In this document: piece after piece, positions 1 through 8,626 of the stretch
Layout: every line of letters begins with the position of its first letter
Position numbering within the stretch: position 1 is the stretch's first letter
From: a virus
Taxonomy: Monodnaviria > Loebvirae > Hofneiviricota > Faserviricetes > Tubulavirales > Inoviridae
DNA: 8,626 bases
IMG/VR virus record: IMGVR_UViG_2663762939_000001
Span: 1 to 8,626 of that record
Reading direction: 5' to 3' (one strand)
Program-made: the position numbers and the translations under genes
Notes under the pieces: generated by a model
Database searches by the model: none
Told to the model about the DNA's origin: nothing
Seen by the model: the letters and a program-made list of their open reading frames with translations, nothing else

Positions 1-15
1 TACATTATGCGCACC
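1..15 (-). other. Partial dif-like XerC/XerD recombination site (XerC arm plus first 4 nt of central region), truncated by the window edge
   Basis: Reverse complement of 1-15 is GGTGCGCATAATGTA, identical to the E. coli dif XerC-binding arm GGTGCGCATAA plus TGTA of the central region (dif = GGTGCGCATAA-TGTATA-TTATGTTAAAT). The rest of the site would lie beyond position 1. Confidence 0.6.
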
Positions 16-395
16 AATGGTAAGGATGGCAGAATCTGGCGGGAATCGTTGACACTTGGCGTCAACTGGCTACTATCGATAGTGATTCAAAATCATCCGT
101 TTCTCCAAACGAATCAGAATCAAATGTCTGTCAGCAGTAAGTGAACGGCCTGACCTCACCAATCAGGCCTGTTCATCCAGTTGCAGTTGGTAAATCTGTA
201 CCTGATACATGAAACCTTCCCCAGAAATACAGCCACAATGTCAGATAAGATGAACGCTGCCGCGCCGAATCAGCTATAACGCTCAAAATGAAAACTGTAC
301 GGCTTGGCCAACCCCGGACAGCAACAAAACGAGTTTTGTCACTGACCGGAGTTTACGATAACTTCGTAAGCATTAAATTTTAGCGGCTAAAAAGT

Positions 396-644
396 TCACC
401 ACCACCATGCAAACGGCTTGTTACTGACAGGAAATGCGATACCGTCAGCATCACGACCACGCAAGACCTGATTAAGAAGCTTTCTGACTTCACGGCGCTC
501 TGGCCGGGTCATCATCATATTGCGATACCAGGACGGTGATTTATCAAACCACCTAGAACAACTGGTAAAATGTGAACCAACACGACGGTAAGACTTCATG
601 CGACCACCGGGAAGTCGATCGCGCACCCTGCTTTTTACAGACAT
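396..644 (-). CDS. Hypothetical small basic protein (82 aa, Arg/Lys/Trp-rich), function unknown
   Basis: ATG at 644..642 preceded on the minus strand by AGAGG and a 6-nt spacer (plus 645-656). The protein is strongly basic with no motif I recognise. It sits between gIV and the dif-like end. Confidence 0.4.
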   Translation of the reverse strand: MSVKSRVRDRLPGGRMKSYRRVGSHFTSCSRWFDKSPSWYRNMMMTRPERREVRKLLNQVLRGRDADGIAFPVSNKPFAWWW

Positions 645-794
645 AAAAAACCTCTAATTAATTGAATCACCTAGAAGATGTCTTTCTGTTCATATCCTGT
701 CAGTTTTAAGGCCATATAGAGGCTCCGTGGTGAAACGTAAAATCCGGCTCTTGATGTGGCCATACCGGGGCTTAACGCACCCGCCACGGCCCCA

Positions 795-2060
795 TCAAAG
801 CGTGCGAATAATATGAGCGGTCAGCAGAACATACATAATGCGTTGCTCATTACTGTCAGCTTTACTCCTGAAAAGCCAGCCAATCACCGGAATTTTACTG
901 ATAAACGGTACAGAACGGTCAGCATTGCTGGATGATGAATCAATCAGCCCACCAAGTAAGAGCGTCTGGCCATCCTTAATCTGAACTGTTGTCTGTATCT
1001 GACGCTGGTTCGTAATAATATCAGATGCCTGGTCATCGTTGCTGATGGAATCAGCGCGGGTATCAATAGTAAGTACAAGCTGGCCGTTCCCCATAACAAC
1101 AGGCGTCACCTTCAAAGATACGCCAACATCATGACGTTCAATGGTCTGAAACGGATTATTTACCCCGGCAGATTCACCCGTAACTTTACCCGTGATAAAG
1201 GGTACATTTTTACCAACAGAAATATAGCCTGTCTGACCAGACTGGGTAAGAATCCGGGGCGTTGAAATCACCTTAGACCGGGAGTTACTCTGCACCGCAC
1301 GCAGGGATACGGCCAGAACATTACCATCAAAAATGCCAAAAGAGCCGCCGGCAGTCGACAATGCGCTACCCAATGCTGAAGTATTAAAGCCCCCTGCTAC
1401 TTTATGCCCGGATGCAGAACCGGCTGCAAACGACAAATCAACACCATCCGACAGACTGGTTTCAAACATCAGCGACTGAATCAATACTTGGTCACGGGCA
1501 ACATCCACAGAATTGATAAAATCGGACAGAACCGGCAGCAGCTCGTCAGGAGCAGAAACAATCAGCGAGTTATTACCTGGATAATCCACGACATTACCAC
1601 CGCCATTAGAATCAAGATAAATTTTAACCAGTTGCTGAACATCGGACGATCTAACTTTTGTCAGCTTAAAATTTCTGACCGTAAGCGCCACAGGTACTGG
1701 CTGGTAAGATGGCTCAGAAGGAAAAGTATCATAAGACTGGTTATCAGAATCATCGGAACCCGAAACCATCTGCGAAGGTAATTTAGACGGCAAAGAGACT
1801 ACCGCAGGATTGCCAGAAAGCATGACAAACCCGTTAGCATTCAGAACAGACTTAAAGAAATCATCAATATTTGTTGGATTAACATCAGCATTAAATACGG
1901 TTACATTTCCTTTAACATCAGGATTAACAATAACAGGCTTGCCAGTTTTTGAAGAATACCACTGAACAAATGAGCGAACAGATGAATTATTTAAATTAAC
2001 AGTTTCAGCAGAAACGCAGAATGAACAGGCAAATAAAAAAGCAACAATAACAGAGCGCAT
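795..2060 (-). CDS. Secretin, filamentous phage export channel (pIV-like, GspD/PulD secretin family)
   Basis: The C-terminal region (…GGLIDSSSSNADRSVPFISKIPVIGWLFRSKADSNEQ…) resembles a secretin domain. An internal ATG at 2060 gives a signal-peptide-like N-terminus (MRSVIVAFLFACSFCVSA) with AGGAG about 10 nt upstream. The ORF extends to an ATG at 2153, but that start would overlap gI by about 86 nt. Last gene of the Ff-like order. Confidence 0.8.
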   Translation of the reverse strand: MRSVIVAFLFACSFCVSAETVNLNNSSVRSFVQWYSSKTGKPVIVNPDVKGNVTVFNADVNPTNIDDFFKSVLNANGFVMLSGNPAVVSLPSKLPSQMVSGSDDSDNQSYDTFPSEPSYQPVPVALTVRNFKLTKVRSSDVQQLVKIYLDSNGGGNVVDYPGNNSLIVSAPDELLPVLSDFINSVDVARDQVLIQSLMFETSLSDGVDLSFAAGSASGHKVAGGFNTSALGSALSTAGGSFGIFDGNVLAVSLRAVQSNSRSKVISTPRILTQSGQTGYISVGKNVPFITGKVTGESAGVNNPFQTIERHDVGVSLKVTPVVMGNGQLVLTIDTRADSISNDDQASDIITNQRQIQTTVQIKDGQTLLLGGLIDSSSSNADRSVPFISKIPVIGWLFRSKADSNEQRIMYVLLTAHIIRTL

Positions 2061-2067
2061 AATAATA

Positions 2068-3162
2068 TTACTCCTGACAGGTAACAGTCTGTAAATAACG
2101 GCCTTTTCTAATAACAATACGACAGGCATCTTTAATATCAACGAAATAACCATCTTTAATCAAATCAAAATACTGATATTTCATACCTTTAGCATCAACA
2201 AACGTAACGGAAACGTCAAAGCCAAGTTGTGAAAAAGAATTAATAGAAAGTCGGGGTAAGTCACTGGACGAATCAGGCGTTACCGCCCTCGCCTGTTCAG
2301 CATAAGCAGATTTAATAGCTGAGATTTCATCAACATTCTTTCCAGACTGGAGCCAGAAACCAAGCCCAAGCCCCAGCGCCAAAAAAGAAAGCATTAATAT
2401 AAGACGGTTCGATTTGCGAAAATAAATTTTAGTGAGGCGCATATAATAATTAAATCCTCTGTGAACAGAAAATTGACCGTGCGTGATAAATGGTGGTAAA
2501 AGCGAAAATGCGCCATGAGGATAATTATCTGTGAACGCTTGTTTGGTATTGTAAGCAGAATAAAGAGATTTTCCTGTATATATCCATTTATCAACAGTGA
2601 TTGAATTAACATTATCACCATATTTGACAATGCCAAAGTGTACCTTTGGTAAAGAAAATCGAGCCCCTGAAACCAAATTCATAATGGAGCCAACAAAAGG
2701 AATGTTTAATTTATCTGAACGGCGACAATAAACAACATGCTCAGCAAGCGCCAGACGAGCTTGCTTATCCATTATCGAAATATCCTGAATCAAAAATATA
2801 ATATCCCAGCCTAATTTTCTGGCATGTAAAAACCAGTCAATAACAGGTTGTCTGTCTTTATCACCCCATGAGCGGGAATTAAACCAAGTACCACATTCAT
2901 CAAGTACAAGGAGGCCATTACGGGATTCATCGTAAGATGTATTCCCAATACCAATAGCAAGTAAATCATTTAATGAAGGCTTGTCAGGAACGCGAATAAC
3001 GCGCGTTTTTTTCGCATAACGCCCAACCATAGGCATATTATGCAATTTAAGGTCAAGATTAGTGGCAACAGGACAACCCTTAGCAAGTCTTTCCTGTATT
3101 CTGGAAACACTAACAAGTGTCTTGCCTGAGCCTAATTTGCCTGTTACTACATGAACCGCCAT
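2068..3162 (-). CDS. Zot-like assembly ATPase (pI-like, zonula occludens toxin family)
   Basis: N-terminal Walker A motif GKLGSGKT (residues 8-15), a single hydrophobic TM segment (LILMLSFLALGLGLGFWL) and a C-terminal periplasmic-type domain. Size 364 aa and position between gVI and gIV fit pI/Zot. Confidence 0.8.
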   Translation of the reverse strand: MAVHVVTGKLGSGKTLVSVSRIQERLAKGCPVATNLDLKLHNMPMVGRYAKKTRVIRVPDKPSLNDLLAIGIGNTSYDESRNGLLVLDECGTWFNSRSWGDKDRQPVIDWFLHARKLGWDIIFLIQDISIMDKQARLALAEHVVYCRRSDKLNIPFVGSIMNLVSGARFSLPKVHFGIVKYGDNVNSITVDKWIYTGKSLYSAYNTKQAFTDNYPHGAFSLLPPFITHGQFSVHRGFNYYMRLTKIYFRKSNRLILMLSFLALGLGLGFWLQSGKNVDEISAIKSAYAEQARAVTPDSSSDLPRLSINSFSQLGFDVSVTFVDAKGMKYQYFDLIKDGYFVDIKDACRIVIRKGRYLQTVTCQE

Positions 3163-3504
3163 TTAAATCACCCTGTTTGCATAATCAAGAAATTTTTGTT
3201 TTAAATCGAAAACAAAAACACTGATACGAGTAACCATAATAACGTTAACACACGCCTGAAAATGGTCAGGCAATACAGATGCCATTAAATGAGAAAAATC
3301 AGCGGGTAACCCGTTATACATGACCTCAGCAAGATACTGCATTAAAAGCGTAACAGTTGTTGTAATTAGCGCGACCAATGCAACCGCTATTAAACCTGTT
3401 TTGGTTGCAAGCCGAGCTAAAAAACTTGCAACATAGCCAATAAGCAAAGGAACAAGACCAATAAGAAAACGCAACAATGCAGGAATACCTAATAATAAAG
3501 GCAT
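3163..3504 (-). CDS. Minor coat protein, pVI-like (hydrophobic, about 113 aa)
   Basis: Highly hydrophobic protein lying between gIII and gI, as in Ff phages. The ATG at 3504 shares a base with the gIII stop (TGATG) and has GGTGG upstream. A GTG at 3507 is an alternative start. Confidence 0.55.
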   Translation of the reverse strand: MPLLLGIPALLRFLIGLVPLLIGYVASFLARLATKTGLIAVALVALITTTVTLLMQYLAEVMYNGLPADFSHLMASVLPDHFQACVNVIMVTRISVFVFDLKQKFLDYANRVI

Positions 3505-4748
3505 CACTCACCACCTTTACGAAGCAATGAAGTTAAAGAAGTAAAGACATACCAGAACGTAAGGCAATAAAAAACCCATGAAAGAGCATCTTTAATAGTC
3601 AGCAATTTATCGCAACCAATATCAATCTGATAAACCTCTCCGGGAAAAATGATAAAATCAGAACAACCATTACCATTAGGTAAATTGGGCAACATAGCAC
3701 CTTTATTTAAGAAAGCCTCCCATAACGCACCATGAGAATCCTTTGCAATTCCTAATTCAGATTCAGCTAAAGTGGAAGCGCTATCTAATTCAGAATCCCC
3801 CTTCCCATAACGGGAATCACCGCCAGAAGGATCAGCAAAACGTCCGGCTCCGCGAGTAAGGTTATTTATAGCGTCACCAAGACGATTTATATTATTTTTA
3901 GTCTGTTCATCAGCCGACTTTTTATCATCAGATGAGGTGTCTTTTTCTGTTAACTTATCATGAATCTCACTGGCAATTTTAGGTGAAGCACCTTCGATAG
4001 CTGACTGAATATCTCCTTTGGTAATACTTGAGTCATTACCACCGCCAGAACCGCCGCCTGAGTTACCACCGCCTGTATCACCTCCTCCAGTATCACCACC
4101 CCCCGTATCCCCGCCTCCAGTATCACTGCCATCGCCAGCAGGAGAAGAAGGCTTATCTGAAGGATCGGCTACGGTTCCGGTAGGCTTCCATGTCGCAGCA
4201 CAAACAGTGCCATCATTCTGGCAAACAATGACGCCAGTGGCCTCATATTCACAACCGTTATAATAAATATAACGATCACCGTCATAAGAATAGACATTAT
4301 TGAATACACCTTCTTCGGGTGGTTTAGCTTCACAAATCTCTTCAGGCGTAGGCTCGGAAGGTTTTTCATCAGGAATAGATCGTTGAATATCACCTATAAT
4401 ATAAGCGGTTAAAGTCCAGTATTTATCTTTCTGGCCTGGAGAGTCGCTGTAAGTACAAGCGTCAGAAAACACAAGACGGAATTCAGAGTTAGGCCATACT
4501 CCCTCATAAGTTGGTTTAACCTGAGTAAAAACACCCTGAGCACTGTCTTTAGCACCCTGACAAGCAGAAGCCTGCATCGCTGCATCAATATAATAAACAG
4601 TTTGTTTAGCGCCATCTTGGTTGGTTATTTGCTTACTTTCAGCATATGCAGAGCTTTGAAAAGTAGATTTAGTAATGCTTTCCCATGAATCAGCATATGA
4701 AAAAGAAGAAATAAGAATAGCGGAAATGATTAATATATTCCTTTTCAT
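3504..4748 (-). CDS. Adsorption / minor coat protein, pIII-like, with signal peptide and Gly-rich linker
   Basis: Signal-peptide-like N-terminus ([19 protein letters not shown]), Cys-containing N-terminal domains, a (GGGDT)n/GGGS linker at residues ~205-239 and a hydrophobic C-terminal anchor ([15 protein letters not shown]). Follows gVIII as gIII does in Ff phages. Confidence 0.75.
4032..4136 (-). repeat. Tandem 15-nt codon repeat encoding the Gly-rich (GGGDT)x4[12 protein letters not shown] linker inside gIII
   Basis: Direct periodic repeats are visible in the DNA (…ccgcctccagtatcaccacc… units) and in the translation. The plus-strand Pro-rich ORF 4018-4263 is its antisense shadow. Confidence 0.7.
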
Positions 4749-4766
4749 AATAACCCGCTTTAATAA

Positions 4767-4784
4767 AGGGGCACGAATGCCCCT
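4767..4784 (-). terminator. Hairpin between gVIII and gIII (candidate intrinsic terminator/attenuator)
   Basis: Inverted repeat AGGGGCA / TGCCCCT (4767-4773 and 4778-4784) with a 4-nt loop, followed on the coding (minus) strand by a T-rich tract. It sits where Ff phages have a rho-independent terminator after gene VIII. Confidence 0.45.
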
Positions 4785-4793
4785 AAGTGAATT

Positions 4794-5036
4794 TTAAACT
4801 GCTTTGGAAGCGAATTTTTTAAAAATACGAATGGCAAGGCCTGCACCAACCACAGCAACAACGACAGGCCATACTTTACCAATAAGATCATTTGCCTGAG
4901 TCAGCAATGCATCCATTGCCTGACCTGCATAATCAGTCCCGCCTGTAGTTCCATCAGCCGCAAAAGAACTGGCAGAAACAAAAAGAGCTGTTGAAGCTAC
5001 TGCAATTTTAGATTTAACAAAAGACAAAACTTTCAT
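4794..5036 (-). CDS. Major coat protein, pVIII-like
   Basis: 80-aa precursor with a signal peptide (…VSASSFA|ADGTT), an acidic mature N-terminus, a hydrophobic core (VWPVVVAVVGAGLAIRIF) and a basic C-terminus (KKFASKAV). GGAG lies upstream of the ATG at 5036. Confidence 0.8.
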   Translation of the reverse strand: MKVLSFVKSKIAVASTALFVSASSFAADGTTGGTDYAGQAMDALLTQANDLIGKVWPVVVAVVGAGLAIRIFKKFASKAV

Positions 5037-5055
5037 ATAAATAACTCCATTAAGG

Positions 5056-5151
5056 TTACATTAAGCGGTCAGAAAATGATTTAAATGAACCGACCGCATA
5101 GAAAAGGGCAAAACCGAAGGTATAAGCCCCGAAAAAATAAGCTATATACAT
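5056..5151 (-). CDS. Small hydrophobic virion protein, pIX-like (31 aa)
   Basis: Hand translation of the minus strand gives MYIAYFFGAYTFGFALFYAVGSFKSFSDRLM. The ATG overlaps the stop of the upstream small ORF (TAATG). Size and position between gV and gVIII match Ff gVII/gIX. Not in the supplied ORF track because it is too short. Confidence 0.45.
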   Translation of the reverse strand: MYIAYFFGAYTFGFALFYAVGSFKSFSDRLM

Positions 5152-5237
5152 TAACGAAAAACCCCCGCAGTAATTGCGCCGAGGCCAAAAGAGATAACAA
5201 TGCCTGACGCTATTAATATTTGTATAACATCAGCCAT
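5151..5237 (-). CDS. Small hydrophobic virion protein, pVII-like (28 aa)
   Basis: Hand translation gives MADVIQILIASGIVISFGLGAITAGVFR. It starts 2 nt after the gV-like stop and is coupled to the next small ORF through a TAATG overlap. Confidence 0.45.
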   Translation of the reverse strand: MADVIQILIASGIVISFGLGAITAGVFR

Positions 5238-5239
5238 AT

Positions 5240-5557
5240 TTAACCTTTTATTTCAGTGATTCCACCATCAGATGAAATGTTATAAGTTACCCCCTCCCTA
5301 CCTTCCATTGACCATACACGAACATAAACGGGGATCTGAACTAACTTTCCGATAAAGCTGTTAGCCTGATTCATTACACCGGAATTCACCAAAGCTTGTG
5401 ACACACGAATAATAATCTGGTCTTGCTTGGTACCACCAAAGCCATCAGGGGTCTCTAAGCCAATACCAATTTCATTATAATAACCCTGCCCATTAATTTT
5501 ATTACGCTGACGAGCACCAAGCATCTTACCTTTCACGAAAAGACCATAATTAGACAT
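5240..5557 (-). CDS. Putative ssDNA-binding protein (gV-like), assigned by position
   Basis: 105-aa protein directly downstream of the replication initiator, with a strong RBS (AGGAGA, 5-nt spacer). The assignment rests on synteny and size, not on a recognised motif. Confidence 0.5.
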   Translation of the reverse strand: MSNYGLFVKGKMLGARQRNKINGQGYYNEIGIGLETPDGFGGTKQDQIIIRVSQALVNSGVMNQANSFIGKLVQIPVYVRVWSMEGREGVTYNISSDGGITEIKG

Positions 5558-5568
5558 ATCACTCTCCT

Positions 5569-6633
5569 TTAGTGCCAGCTACTGGCATGTGAAATACGGT
5601 TGTAATCGAAAATTAAACCTTTCTCATAAACCCATGATGGAATTTTGGCTGGTTTAGCCTCAAGTGTTCTTACTAATGGAACAATATTATTTGAATCAGG
5701 GGATTCACAATAAAAATTAATATCTATCCCAAAAGACAGTAATTCTTTACGATGCCTGTAAAATGTTGGCTTTGGAAGCATTTCTTTCATATTTGCGCCC
5801 TGCTTCCATAACAAATATGTAGACTGTATTTTTCTTGGGAGATTAATTATCTTTTCATCAGTTAATATAGTATTTTGATTCATTTCTATTCTCCCTACAT
5901 AGTCAGAGAATACTTTATTAGGCGTCTCAATATTCCAGTTTTTACCAAGCGTAAGATTCAAATCAATTAATTCGGTTGTTCTTAATGTTAATTCAATACG
6001 TAATTTATCTTTTGACCAATCCAGTAAACCAGCGTTAACAAATTCATCTGCTATCTGGTGCCCTTTTTTTCCAGATGTATGCTCATCATATTTAGAGTAA
6101 AATTTCAGGCTCCAACGACGGGAGTTTTTTCCCAAATAGACCGTTCCCCCTTTGCCACAGGCGCGACCATGACGAGTTTTTGCTTTAAACTCTGCGGCAT
6201 AAAGCCATGCCCGCACATTTTCCAATGTTGATAATGAATACATGTAATTAATATCAACACGGGAAATCTTATATTGCCCTGTCATTACCTGACGATAGGA
6301 CGGAAGGTCATGGGGAATATGAAGTAATGCCAGTATTCTCGCGTAAGCTGTCAATACCAGTCCTTGCAAATCGTCGGAACCAATAACCGAATGTCCCTGA
6401 AGAAATTTTGACGGATTACCATCAATATAAAGATGTGTTGCCCGGCCTTCGCCATCGGATCCAACTGATCTTACTTTCATTGTAGATTCGTACGAACCGC
6501 GAACAGTCAACCGTTTTACTGTTTCCCACTCCACTGCACCATCAGCATCAACGCTGACGACACTACCAGCCGGTAACGGTTGGTGCGTGCAAGGCAGGAT
6601 TCCAGTAAACCAGTCGATCATAAGTAGCCACAC
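5569..6633 (-). CDS. Rolling-circle replication initiation protein (gII / RstA-like)
   Basis: 354-aa protein at the head of the minus-strand module, resembling phage/plasmid replication initiators. The track start at 6633 is GTG; the first ATG is at 6621 (MIDWFTG…), so the exact start is uncertain. Confidence 0.75.
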   Translation of the reverse strand: MWLLMIDWFTGILPCTHQPLPAGSVVSVDADGAVEWETVKRLTVRGSYESTMKVRSVGSDGEGRATHLYIDGNPSKFLQGHSVIGSDDLQGLVLTAYARILALLHIPHDLPSYRQVMTGQYKISRVDINYMYSLSTLENVRAWLYAAEFKAKTRHGRACGKGGTVYLGKNSRRWSLKFYSKYDEHTSGKKGHQIADEFVNAGLLDWSKDKLRIELTLRTTELIDLNLTLGKNWNIETPNKVFSDYVGRIEMNQNTILTDEKIINLPRKIQSTYLLWKQGANMKEMLPKPTFYRHRKELLSFGIDINFYCESPDSNNIVPLVRTLEAKPAKIPSWVYEKGLIFDYNRISHASSWH

Positions 6634-6792
6634 CCATCAAAATATGTGTCAATAGTCATTTGTGAGCAAATTGAGTGGTCACAATGTAATATGCTCAGAT
6701 CTGACAGTCAATACATTTGCAATGTTTAAATTGTCAGAAATGAGCATCAAATCTAACTATTGAAAAACCACTGTTAAGATGGAGCCAAGTAG
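6634..6792. promoter_or_regulatory. Divergent intergenic control region between gII (minus) and the HTH regulator (plus), with operator-like inverted repeats
   Basis: Imperfect inverted repeat 6691-6707 (atgctcagatctgacag) and 6731-6747 (ttgtcagaaatgagcat), 14 of 17 matching, with a perfect 10-bp palindrome tcagatctga at 6695-6704. Also TTGTGA-N13-TCACAA at 6660-6684. A possible leftward promoter is -35 TTGCTC (plus 6664-6669) and -10 CATATT (plus 6641-6646). GGAG at 6781-6784 precedes the regulator ATG. Confidence 0.5.
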
Positions 6793-7239
6793 ATGGGCAA
6801 CAATGAGCATGATGATATGGCGGACAAGCAGAGAGCAGAACGTATCAAAAAGGTAATTCTGGAAAACTCGACTTATGAAGAACTGGCCGAGAAAACCGGT
6901 ATTAGCGTTAGCACACTGGTCAGAATAGCGTCCGGCAAAACTGAGCCTAAATTCAGTGACATAATTCAGATAGCTAAAATTACGGGTGCAGACTTGAACA
7001 CCCTTGCTTATGGCTATGCTATTGATGTTAAAGAAGAAGCTACTGAAAGGAAGTTAATCACTTCCGCAGACGGTTACACTGATGAAGAAACCACTAACGC
7101 CCACAATTTCATTGTGTGGAACATCAGAACACTGAATAAACAAGATATTCTGGCTCTCTCAAGGCAAGTTTCTGCATTAAGTTCATATACTTACAGTACG
7201 AAAATGTTTATGAAAAAAGTAGTGTCAGGCGAAGATTAA
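6793..7239 (+). CDS. HTH (XRE/Cro-C1 type) transcriptional regulator, candidate phage repressor
   Basis: The N-terminal region (…TYEELAEKTGISVSTLVRIASGKTEPKFSDIIQIAKITGADLNTLAYG) resembles a helix-turn-helix XRE domain, followed by a C-terminal extension of about 70 aa. It is transcribed divergently from gII, like RstR in CTXphi. Confidence 0.75.
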   Translation: MGNNEHDDMADKQRAERIKKVILENSTYEELAEKTGISVSTLVRIASGKTEPKFSDIIQIAKITGADLNTLAYGYAIDVKEEATERKLITSADGYTDEETTNAHNFIVWNIRTLNKQDILALSRQVSALSSYTYSTKMFMKKVVSGED

Positions 7240-7249
7240 AGGGTTTAGC

Positions 7250-7296
7250 AGTCTCAGGAATGAGACTAACGTGCAGTATTACCAACACTGCACGTT
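7250..7296 (+). terminator. Two tandem hairpins downstream of the regulator gene (candidate terminator/attenuator)
   Basis: Stem 7250-7256 / 7261-7267 (agtctca / tgagact) with a 4-nt loop, then stem 7268-7277 / 7287-7296 (aacgtgcagt / actgcacgtt) with a 9-nt loop, followed by cTTTATT. Confidence 0.4.
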
Positions 7297-7338
7297 CTTT
7301 ATTGTGTGAATTTTGAACAGTGAAAAAGGATCAAAAGG

Positions 7339-7761
7339 ATGAGTAGAAATAACGAAACAAGCGGCGTTGAACTGGTTGTCGTGGGCGTATTTGCTTTCTG
7401 TCTGGCAGTTGTTGCCTGGCTAATGAAAACTTTCGATGTTGAATGGCAAACAGCACTGGAAACTGCGCCTGGCCTGATAGTCTGGCTGCTTGTTGTCGGT
7501 GCGGGGATCTTTTTCGGGATCAAAATGGAAACTGGCCTTATTCGCTGGGGTGCTCCACTGGCGATCGCCCTTCTGATTCCGGTATTCAAGCCAATTCTTA
7601 AGGAAGCTGCCGGAGTTCGTGAAACGGGTGGGCTGGTTTTCGATGATATGGTTTCGTGGTATGGAACTGGCTGGGGAATGTCTCTGATGTTCTTCGGGAT
7701 TCTTATTGTCGGATATGGCCTGCTTTATTGGTGGCACAGAAGAAATTCATATTACTGGTAA
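7339..7761 (+). CDS. Small integral membrane protein (140 aa, about 4 predicted TM helices), function unknown
   Basis: Four hydrophobic segments (about residues 10-28, 44-62, 69-83, 112-131) and a Trp/Tyr-rich C-terminus. AAGGA lies about 9 nt upstream of the ATG. The overlapping minus-strand ORFs are low-complexity antisense shadows. Confidence 0.65.
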   Translation: MSRNNETSGVELVVVGVFAFCLAVVAWLMKTFDVEWQTALETAPGLIVWLLVVGAGIFFGIKMETGLIRWGAPLAIALLIPVFKPILKEAAGVRETGGLVFDDMVSWYGTGWGMSLMFFGILIVGYGLLYWWHRRNSYYW

Positions 7762-7789
7762 TCAATAAAACGTAGAAGAGAGGAAACAT

Positions 7790-8065
7790 ATGAAACTGAA
7801 TCCTGAGAAATACAATAGAAACATCACCCTGCTATGTCCTGTGTGCGGAAATACAGAGATGGAACACGAGGAAGAGTCTGAAGTCGTCAGATGTGTAGGC
7901 TGCGGGAAAGAATTTACTAATGATGAATTAATCCAAGAAAACGGGGTGAGTATTGACGCCCATGTAGATGAAATAAAAGAAGAGTTAACAAAAGACATTC
8001 AAAAACAGTTTGGTGACATGCTCAAAAAGGCATTTAAGGGAAGTAAGAATATAAGGATCAAATAA
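7790..8065 (+). CDS. Small zinc-ribbon protein (91 aa; CPVCG…CVGCG), function unknown
   Basis: Two CxxC pairs (C16/C19 and C35/C38) form a putative zinc ribbon, followed by a charged helical tail. Strong RBS (AGAGAGGAAACAT-ATG). The stop overlaps the next gene's start (TAATG). Confidence 0.65.
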   Translation: MKLNPEKYNRNITLLCPVCGNTEMEHEEESEVVRCVGCGKEFTNDELIQENGVSIDAHVDEIKEELTKDIQKQFGDMLKKAFKGSKNIRIK

Positions 8066-8544
8066 TGACAACAAGTGATGCCATCGCTTTAGCTGCGCTT
8101 GTAGTATCGATTTACACTATCATATCGTCAGAAATGAAATCGAGAAAAAGCGATAGAGAACAAAGGGTTATAAAGGATGAGCAAGACAGGTTACGTAAGT
8201 TGCTTCTGGAAAAAGAAACAAAGTCAGCAATTAATGAGATGAAAGCTGAGCTTGGTGCTCGCCTCGTAAAAATAGCCAAAAACAACTATAGGCTCAAGAT
8301 ATTTAATAGAGGGAGGGTTGAGGCTAAAAATATAGAGATTCATTTCCCTGATAACGATGGAAATGAATATCTTTCAATGCATGATGTAGAAGATAAATTT
8401 CCATATGAGGTATTACACCCGCAACATGGGATTGAAATTTTAGCGGGAATAAGCTTTGGAAGTAAAACTAAATACCGAATAAAACTCATATGGGATGACA
8501 ATTATAAAAGAAGAAATGAAGAGGAGTTTTTCATTTCTATATAA
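8065..8544 (+). CDS. N-terminally membrane-anchored protein (159 aa) with charged helical linker and beta-rich C-terminal domain, function unknown
   Basis: N-terminal hydrophobic helix (AIALAALVVSIYTIISS), a Lys/Glu-rich predicted coiled region, then a C-terminal domain. AAGGA RBS with 7-nt spacer. Translationally coupled to the zinc-ribbon gene. Confidence 0.65.
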   Translation: MTTSDAIALAALVVSIYTIISSEMKSRKSDREQRVIKDEQDRLRKLLLEKETKSAINEMKAELGARLVKIAKNNYRLKIFNRGRVEAKNIEIHFPDNDGNEYLSMHDVEDKFPYEVLHPQHGIEILAGISFGSKTKYRIKLIWDDNYKRRNEEEFFISI

Positions 8545-8574
8545 ATTGGTTCGCACAATGACGTTATGCTAAAG

Positions 8575-8612
8575 AGGCCGCTGCGGGATTCGATTTTCGC
8601 AGCGGCCTTTTC
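8575..8612 (+). terminator. GC-rich hairpin plus T-tract (candidate intrinsic terminator), core of a longer imperfect palindrome
   Basis: Stem AGGCCGCTGCG (8575-8585) / CGCAGCGGCCT (8598-8608), 12-nt loop, followed by TTTT (8608-8611). The arms extend imperfectly to 8562-8585 / 8598-8621, 21 of 24 matching. Confidence 0.5.
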
Positions 8613-8626
8613 AACATAACGAGTCG

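Follow-up and report, generated by a model that had tools for sequence, protein, structure and literature searches.

The closest described relatives of the element presented here are the UPφ viruses of Shapiro and Putonti (2020), which combine a Lineavirus-like core and the gene order of the Ff phages (M13, f1 and fd) with tandem integration at dif (PMC7307601). Their hosts are Escherichia coli, Salmonella enterica, Klebsiella pneumoniae, Yersinia enterocolitica and Citrobacter koseri. UPφ lysogens shed DNase-protected phage DNA, and E. coli ECONIH2 is cited as a UPφ tandem triple (PMC7307601). Integration of the CTXφ type is irreversible, and progeny are obtained by rolling-circle replication from arrays (PMC4246890). 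Ypfφ and CUS-1φ are classed as CTXφ-type elements (PMC4246890, PMC4266046), and they carry the same gII/gV type as the UPφ viruses (PMC7307601). We have analyzed a stretch of 8,626 nucleotides (nt), hereafter the window, which corresponds to positions 1 to 8,626 of the IMG/VR record IMGVR_UViG_2663762939_000001 (Inoviridae). The window is very probably exactly one genome unit of a temperate, dif-integrating inovirus with a core like that of I2-2 and IKe (Lineavirus), placed within the UPφ viruses or in a sister lineage of them, and positions 795-6621 carry the full Ff-type gene set on the minus strand. It is an already described kind of phage, whose gene set and order have been published. In fact, the identical sequence is already present in public assemblies.

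The ends of the unit coincide with the Xer crossover inside dif. Position 1 lies in the dif central region, where TACA is followed by the XerC arm TTATGCGCACC. The source, E. coli contig KQ088931.1 (L002; assembly GCA_001032735.1), contains, between dif and a hipBA flank, a single prophage which is 100% identical to the window, and the flanks of this contig are 95-98% identical to E. coli. A complete dif of 28 bp, ATTTAACATAATATACATTATGCGCACC, crosses the left junction of the source contig. The last bases of the window are ...TTTTCAACATAACGAGTCG, and TACATTATGCGCACC comes next in every chromosomal copy. In tandem arrays (L001, L018) the end of the window is joined straight to its start. Relatives form head-to-tail arrays of two or three copies, that is, unit-length repeats bounded by dif, and integration is at dif in all chromosomal loci examined. 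A search of the window for the 28-bp dif with up to three mismatches gave none, because the window begins within this site. Scans of the window found no tRNA and no credible Rfam match, the best one (E 0.27) being on the attP hairpin described below. Another copy (L003) has three differences over the 8,626 positions. Its flanks have no megablast match among 5,426 complete E. coli genomes, which places it in a chromosome of another species, and therefore implies a very recent transfer between species.

The original prediction for this DNA had proposed the order gII, gV, two small hydrophobic genes, gVIII, gIII, gVI, gI and gIV. This order is confirmed by nine minus-strand open reading frames (ORFs), each of which matches the expected inovirus family. 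The protein search against inoviruses which had been named as a check gave Pfam and PHROGs matches for all nine genes. Including the nested genes, the full minus-strand order is gII(+gX)-gV-gVII-gIX-gVIII-gIII-gVI-gI(+gXI)-gIV, with the following coordinates.

5569-6621, minus strand: gII, rolling-circle initiator of 350 amino acids (aa); Phage_CRI (PF05144) 2.9e-73, G2P_X_C (PF05155) 2e-33
5883-5569, minus strand: gX, nested in gII, starting at Met247 behind GGGAGA, which resembles a ribosome-binding site; matches the separate pX profile phrog_17464
5240-5557, minus strand: gV, I2-2-type protein binding single-stranded DNA (ssDNA); Putative_G5P (PF17426) 3.3e-51
5151-5237, minus strand: gVII, hydrophobic minor coat protein of 28 aa; Inovirus_G7P_2 (PF19978) 4e-10
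5056-5151, minus strand: gIX, hydrophobic minor coat protein of 31 aa; phrog_28333 4e-9
4794-5036, minus strand: gVIII, major coat protein, precursor of 80 aa; Phage_coatGP8 3e-19
3504-4748, minus strand: gIII, attachment protein; G3P_pilus-bind 2e-24, Phage_Coat_A, phrog_4150 2.7e-255
3163-3504, minus strand: gVI, minor coat protein of 113 aa; DUF5455, phrog_1944 2e-43
2068-3162, minus strand: gI, Zot-family assembly ATPase; Zot (PF05707) 5e-40, Walker A GKLGSGKT, phrog_1675 'protein I of M13' 1.5e-175
2442-2068, minus strand: gXI, nested in gI, starting at Met241 directly ahead of the transmembrane segment
795-2060, minus strand: gIV, outer-membrane secretin of 421 aa with a signal peptide; Secretin (PF00263) 8e-45, phrog_1012 'protein IV of M13' 3e-153

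These genes include what characterizes the Ff-type Inoviridae: a Zot-family pI with a Walker A motif together with a pIV secretin; pVIII together with pIII, pVI, pVII and pIX in the Ff order; and the initiator pII with a nested pX, together with an ssDNA-binding pV. The pIV protein matches the structure of f1 pIV (7OFH) with an E value of 5e-121. In pIII, a signal peptide is followed by an IKe-type pilus-binding domain (aa 20-128), a TolA-binding domain (130-195), a Gly-rich GGGDT linker and a C-terminal anchor. The first of these domains matches PDB entry 4EO0 (E 2e-27) and the second 4EO1 (E 1.5e-26). Each entry was deposited as 'Attachment protein G3P', and we take them to be the pilus-binding and TolA-binding domains of IKe, respectively. 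Met241 is presumably the same residue number as the pXI start of M13.

Judging from the sequence, gII most likely starts at ATG 6621 (MIDW..., as in I2-2 pII, relatives being annotated with 350 aa) and not at GTG 6633. For gIV the most likely start is 2060, which would give the signal peptide MRSVIVAFLFACSFCVSA and a protein of 421 aa, as annotated in relatives; alignments to I2-2 and IKe pIV begin at residue 4-5. The mechanical ORF start at 2153 was rejected as an over-extension. With these starts, the gene junctions are as follows.

gII-gV: gap of 11 nt
gV-gVII: gap of 2 nt
gVII/gIX: -1, overlap TAATG
gIX-gVIII: gap of 19 nt
gVIII-gIII: gap of 45 nt, which holds a hairpin
gIII/gVI: -1, overlap ATGA, the gVI start lying on the gIII stop
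gVI-gI: gap of 0 nt
gI-gIV: gap of 7 nt
4767-4784, minus strand: terminator-like hairpin in the gVIII-gIII spacer, at the place where IKe has an annotated terminator stem-loop (IKe 2031-2050)

The spacing is thus as tight as had been claimed, while true overlap of stop and start codons, also claimed, is found at only two junctions (gVII/gIX and gIII/gVI). The predicted hairpin after gVIII is present: AGGGGCA-TTCG-TGCCCCT at 4784-4767, followed by TTTATT (z -2.15). It was detected by direct folding; the consensus terminator scan missed it because the T-run is short.

The element had been considered intact, and we have found no frameshift or truncation with respect to I2-2, IKe, M13, If1 and five prophage relatives. 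Nine proteins align collinearly from end to end with those of I2-2/IKe, and seven with those of M13 and If1. When compared with an E. coli relative which is 91% identical (L001), all nine genes have equal length, with no gaps and no internal stops, and the ratio of nonsynonymous to synonymous substitution rates is 0.03-0.16. The same intact pattern is found with more distant relatives (L012, L013, L014). The nine genes are under strong purifying selection. Decayed relatives do exist, so the intactness found here is informative and not trivial. For example, a contig of SRR24520228 (L005) is a 99.8% copy with a clean deletion of 1,089 nt (window 5818-6906), by which two-thirds of gII are lost from the N-terminal side, together with the control region and the beginning of the regulator gene. 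In E. coli A20, an IS21-family element and two 'attachment protein' features under the listed match suggest a split gIII.

The comparison with the UPφ copy of ECONIH2 shows where the window belongs. Gene order, dif integration and head-to-tail arrays are shared. The core is 87.7% identical at the nt level, and the aa identity of the morphogenesis proteins is 84-98% (97-98% for pVI, pI and pIV, 84% for pIII), with 86% for pII. Three reverse-strand cargo genes are 96-99% identical at the aa level. A Lineavirus-like core at dif, typically in tandem, is what defines the UPφ viruses, and it is found here, with one copy in the source and two or three in relatives. The reverse-strand genes mem140, Zn91 and orf159, described below, would correspond to their 'h3' ORF (with h4/h5 in a subset). 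Of window positions 1-791, on the other hand, only the first 41 nt and a block of 100 nt align with the ECONIH2 unit. A nt identity of 95% is the usual threshold for phage species, and the identity to the ECONIH2 copy is below this value. We consider the window to be a sister lineage, in which both the immunity gene and the post-gIV region have been exchanged.

The similarity to Lineavirus is found mainly in proteins. Over nine collinear core proteins, the aa identity to I2-2 is 43-74%: 59% for pII, 43% for pV, 69% for pVII, 53% for pIX, 59% for pVIII, 56% for pIII (N-terminal half), 52% for pVI, 65% for pI and 74% for pIV. Identity to IKe is 51-72% over seven morphogenesis proteins (pIII 51% over its full length, pIV 72%); pVII is 69% identical to I2-2/IKe, and pIX 53-57%. 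DNA similarity to these phages is limited to some 190 nt of gIV at 80%. As in I2-2 and IKe, the pilus-binding domain of pIII precedes the TolA-binding domain, and the presumed packaging signal is at the end of gIV. The replication module is of the I2-2 type, including a 41-nt origin hairpin, while the pII and pV of IKe are unrelated in type. A search of the phage database with pII gave only I2-2 and one distant virus, and pV has no match to the pV of M13 or IKe. Lifestyle is different: I2-2 and IKe are non-integrating episomal phages, with no dif-like sites, no 148-aa regulator and no cargo genes, whereas this element is found at dif.

Gene order, nested gX and gXI and the terminator after gVIII are also shared with the Ff phages. 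The aa identity to M13 is 53% for pI, 51% for pIV and 42% for pVIII, and it is marginal for pII (22%; also marginal to IKe). The order of the N-terminal pIII domains is different from Ff, and the element is temperate and 2.2 kb larger. The likeness to M13/f1 put forward by the original prediction therefore holds for order, spacing and hairpin, not for the replication module, which is I2-2-type instead of Ff/IKe-type. Its comparators CUS-1 and Ypfφ are less close to the element than the UPφ viruses and Lineavirus (PMC7307601 and the ECONIH2 comparison). Two further relatives, in Izhakiella australiensis (L013) and Rosenbergiella gaditana (L014), are 82-97% identical at the aa level from gVII to gIV, but neither this pII/pV nor the origin hairpin has a detectable counterpart in them. 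From these sequences, the replication module is swapped in both. The Izhakiella sequence is a contig of 8,271 nt, labelled with 336x coverage, which ends inside attP.

A characteristic feature of the element is an attP which, from its sequence, has CTXφ architecture. It is made of the two ends of the window.

8548-8626, no strand: attP region, with a dif-like site, a GC-rich terminator hairpin (8576-8607), an inverted XerD-like arm TTTCAACATAA and the CGAGTCG of a long central region
1-15, no strand: phage-side part of the dif reconstituted at the left junction (TACA and TTATGCGCACC), which completes attP with 8548-8626 once the genome is circular

The dif-like site at 8548-8574 is GGTTCGCACAA-TGACG-TTATGCTAAAG. 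A second one, on the opposite strand across the junction, is GGTGCGCATAA-TGTACGACTCG-TTATGTTGAAA. The two sites are inverted around the GC-rich terminator hairpin, as in the CTXφ type, and folding of the (+) strand over the joined ends gives a single long stem whose central region is bulged (-31.2 kcal/mol, z -7.3). A compensatory change from G:C to A:T is present in the attP stem of the Izhakiella and Rosenbergiella relatives. In duplex attP, 11 bp separate the XerC arm from the good XerD-like arm, which makes the duplex a poor Xer site. At the junctions of L001, L002 and L003, dif is regenerated on one side and a non-canonical hybrid is found on the other. In L003 the hybrid side has the host XerC arm (...GCGCATT) and the regenerated dif has the phage arm (...GCGCACC). 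These junctions place the crossover at the XerC side and fit an exchange of the top strand by XerC. Several features are shared with CTXφ-type elements: inverted dif-like sites able to form a hairpin, a central region which resembles that of dif on the XerC side only (TGTA), restoration of dif on one side only and the tandem arrays of relatives. The morphogenesis genes, unlike these features, are unrelated in sequence to those of CTXφ, and the chemistry proposed here is taken from the work on such elements (PMC4246890, PMC4266046).

The region 795-6633 had been described as a complete morphogenesis and replication module. The gene set is complete, and the module is not self-sufficient: origin, attP and most of the packaging-signal region lie outside. 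Three candidate cis elements have been detected.

747-801, minus strand: packaging-signal-like imperfect hairpin, found by folding, which overlaps the gIV stop codon
7250-7297, minus strand: candidate viral-strand (+) origin with two adjacent hairpins, the first being GAACGTGCAGTGTTGGTAATACTGCACGTT; I2-2 match, fold z -6.6
253-353, minus strand: conserved non-coding block with a strong hairpin at 310-353; fold z -4.6

Window positions 768-842 are 74% identical to I2-2 2226-2298 and IKe 6109-6176, both of which overlap an annotated 'morphogenetic signal'. At 7258-7297, a 41-nt stretch is 88% identical to the I2-2 intergenic region, with a perfect 13-bp hairpin followed by a second one. Besides the match at the gIV 3' end and packaging signal, this is the only non-coding match to I2-2. 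All loci with I2-2-type pII have the origin hairpin in identical or almost identical form, even when the flanking genes have been replaced (L005 differs at the 3' end), and it is not found in loci carrying another replication module. The block at 253-353 is 82-85% identical in L012, L013 and L018, in spite of non-homologous surrounding DNA; our guess is that it may be a cis element, for example a minus-strand origin.

We infer a possible life cycle from Ff biology. The pII protein would nick the (+) origin (candidate 7250-7297) and drive rolling-circle replication; pX and pV would then shift the products to ssDNA, which pV would coat. The packaging hairpin at the gIV end would recruit pVII and pIX to an export channel made of pI/pXI and pIV, pVIII would displace pV as the filament is extruded, and pIII and pVI would cap it. 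Entry would probably use a conjugative pilus and then TolA, since pIII, in its N-terminal half, matches two solved structures of G3P domains as well as the pilus-binding and coat-protein-A families of Pfam. IncI plasmids were noted in all UPφ lysogens of the published study (PMC7307601). As for lysogeny, the junctions are observed and the chemistry is modelled on CTXφ: the (+) ssDNA would fold its two inverted dif-like sites into a forked hairpin, and XerC would exchange one strand with the chromosomal dif, leaving a perfect dif and a dead hybrid site. For progeny, rolling-circle replication would start at the origin of one copy, proceed leftwards past gII...gIV and position 1, cross the junction and reach the next origin. 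Such origin-to-origin replication would therefore need a tandem array or a persisting replicative form; in a solitary copy, synthesis would run into host DNA. The claim that the element is potentially able to produce virions is reasonable for the phage and, for any given lysogen, conditional on an array or replicative form. Virion production is plausible because of the three-difference copy in a non-E. coli chromosome and the DNase-protected DNA shed by UPφ lysogens.

A different explanation is that the genes are intact and the prophage is functionally locked, that is, a solitary, irreversibly integrated cryptic prophage which makes no virions and is perhaps kept for its cargo or regulator genes. 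The source contig, in which one copy has a perfect dif on one side and host DNA on the other, would agree with this, given that CTXφ-type integration is irreversible and array-dependent (PMC4246890), and a UPφ prophage of C. koseri is integrated and not produced (PMC7307601). The decayed relatives (L005, which has lost most of gII and the regulator, and A20 with its suggested split gIII) point in the same direction. Nevertheless, short-read assemblies commonly collapse tandem arrays, and the single copy of the source contig has to be read with this in mind. In 43 of the 71 collection blocks, an identical pIII is found on contigs of 5-10 kb, as expected for arrays or episomes. Strong purifying selection on nine genes of unchanged length and the recent transfer implied by the three-difference copy (3/8,626) also speak against a locked prophage, which we consider unlikely. 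We had first taken the element for a prophage of the CUS-1/Ypfφ type, given its dif and hipBA location, an assignment overturned by the published UPφ data (PMC7307601) and the ECONIH2 comparison. Integration at dif, accessory genes at both ends and a divergent regulator resembling RstR would suit that type, and gII and gV of UPφ901 are >85% identical to those of Ypfφ (PMC7307601). However, the other UPφ901 genes are <20% identical to those of Ypfφ, published identities which set Ypfφ/CUS-1 apart (PMC7307601), and the morphogenesis genes of the window are 50-74% identical to those of IKe/I2-2 and 84-98% to those of the ECONIH2 UPφ copy, so that this assignment is now very improbable. We give practically no credit to the idea of a chromosomal secretion or toxin island with a Zot-like ATPase and a secretin: both of these families also have members outside phages, but here they belong to nine collinear inovirus genes, including coat proteins and a rolling-circle replication initiator, in unit-length repeats bounded by dif.

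Some observations weigh against our reading of the window as a UPφ-like temperate phage, a reading which is built on sequence. The window lacks the two small ORFs which follow gIV in ECONIH2, presumably the two group-specific genes of the UPφ viruses in the I2-2/IKe intergenic region, and it has a different regulator. The source contig has host DNA on both sides of a single copy, from which no progeny would be obtained under the CTXφ model. The UPφ authors obtained no new infections (PMC7307601). Integration as ssDNA is our proposal, and the junctions by themselves would also be compatible with a double-stranded attP. Origin, packaging signal and minus-strand origin are candidates assigned by position, conservation and folding.

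The remaining genes of the window are a small ORF after gIV and a group on the plus strand, which starts with a regulator divergent from gII.

396-644, minus strand: orf82, a basic protein of 82 aa downstream of gIV; called in relatives, no family match
6622-6792, no strand: control region separating the divergent gII and regulator genes, with promoter-like TTGACT-17-TACATT (6711-6683, minus strand) and a putative regulatory role
6793-7239, plus strand: HTH_3 regulator of 148 aa, divergent from gII; phrog_3557 1e-71, RstR model below cut-off
7339-7761, plus strand: mem140, membrane protein of 140 aa; phrog_4174 1.5e-85, 98.6% aa identity in ECONIH2
7790-8065, plus strand: Zn91, cargo gene for an ECs_2282-family CxxC zinc-ribbon protein of 91 aa; NF047912 65 bits (cut-off 37), 97.8% aa identity in ECONIH2
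8065-8544, plus strand: orf159, cargo protein of 159 aa; phrog_6723, 96.2% aa identity in ECONIH2

The orf82 gene stands where the ECONIH2 copy has its two small ORFs, and it has no tblastn match in the ECONIH2 unit. The regulator is presumed to be the repressor or immunity gene. It is 71% identical at the aa level in L004 and L006, and absent from ECONIH2, which has a 60-aa ORF in its place. Among the genes with a conserved position it is the most variable one, and in this it resembles the heteroimmune rstR alleles of CTXφ. In I2-2 (L008), an apparent unannotated antisense ORF is found at about 2720-2917 on the minus strand (...ggttttttcat in reverse), beside the shared origin hairpin, and it occupies the place of the regulator. 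The mem140 gene is probably the 'h3' ORF of the UPφ paper, which is widely conserved and has the reverse orientation. Between mem140 and attP, positions 7762-8545 are a variable cargo slot, also seen in L001, L006, H22 and H23/H25, and the outer edge of the XerC-like arm GGTTCGCA is exactly where the variability starts. In the window this slot is occupied by the zinc ribbon and orf159 genes. Its other contents are a PD-(D/E)XK nuclease, a protein with a TIR domain, a hypothetical protein of 369 aa and an AbiJ-like protein (STM4504), and the slot may be a hotspot for defence genes or morons. The cargo proteins of the window have no PADLOC or Pfam function except for the ECs_2282 zinc ribbon, and orf159 has no Pfam, PADLOC or NCBIfam family.

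Sequences like the attP hairpin are also found outside phages. The block at window 8547-8618 (L016 2501-2571, L017 2501-2562), which comprises the dif-like site, the GC hairpin and TTTTCAACATA, has matches of 89-94% in 466 plasmid records, 418 of them conjugative. The examples inspected are IncF plasmids, and the plasmid copies diverge from the phage sequence after TTTTCAACATA. Just to the right of the window in the source contig (L002 4740-6105) there is an element of 1.37 kb with imperfect terminal inverted repeats of about 50 nt. Its insertion point is 5 bp away from the XerC arm in the hybrid site of the prophage, with a 5-bp duplication-like flank, and its sequence is 97-99% identical to plasmid DNA annotated as an ISNCY-family transposase. 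An attP-like block, some 93% identical, is found just inside the right inverted repeat of this ISNCY/IS1202-type element, which also occurs on hundreds of conjugative plasmids. Targeting of dif has been published for this family of insertion sequences (IS1202/ISAjo2-type), and the spacing found here agrees (PMC10132070). No ends of the insertion sequence were found in a search within the window. In the phage and the insertion sequence alike, variable and partly defence-like cargo (AbiJ-like STM4504, TIR, PD-(D/E)XK) starts at the outer edge of the XerC-like arm. The attP hairpin might be a portable module for recombination or cargo exchange, linking inoviruses, dif-targeting insertion sequences and IncF plasmids, a rather doubtful idea at present.

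In summary, the combination of a UPφ core with another immunity gene and another post-gIV region fits modular exchange, and so do the relatives in Izhakiella and Rosenbergiella. The near-identical copies in E. coli and in a non-E. coli host indicate an ongoing spread between species. The origin hairpin and the CTXφ-style attP are predictions which are not in the UPφ paper, and they imply that phage output would depend on the copy number of the prophage.

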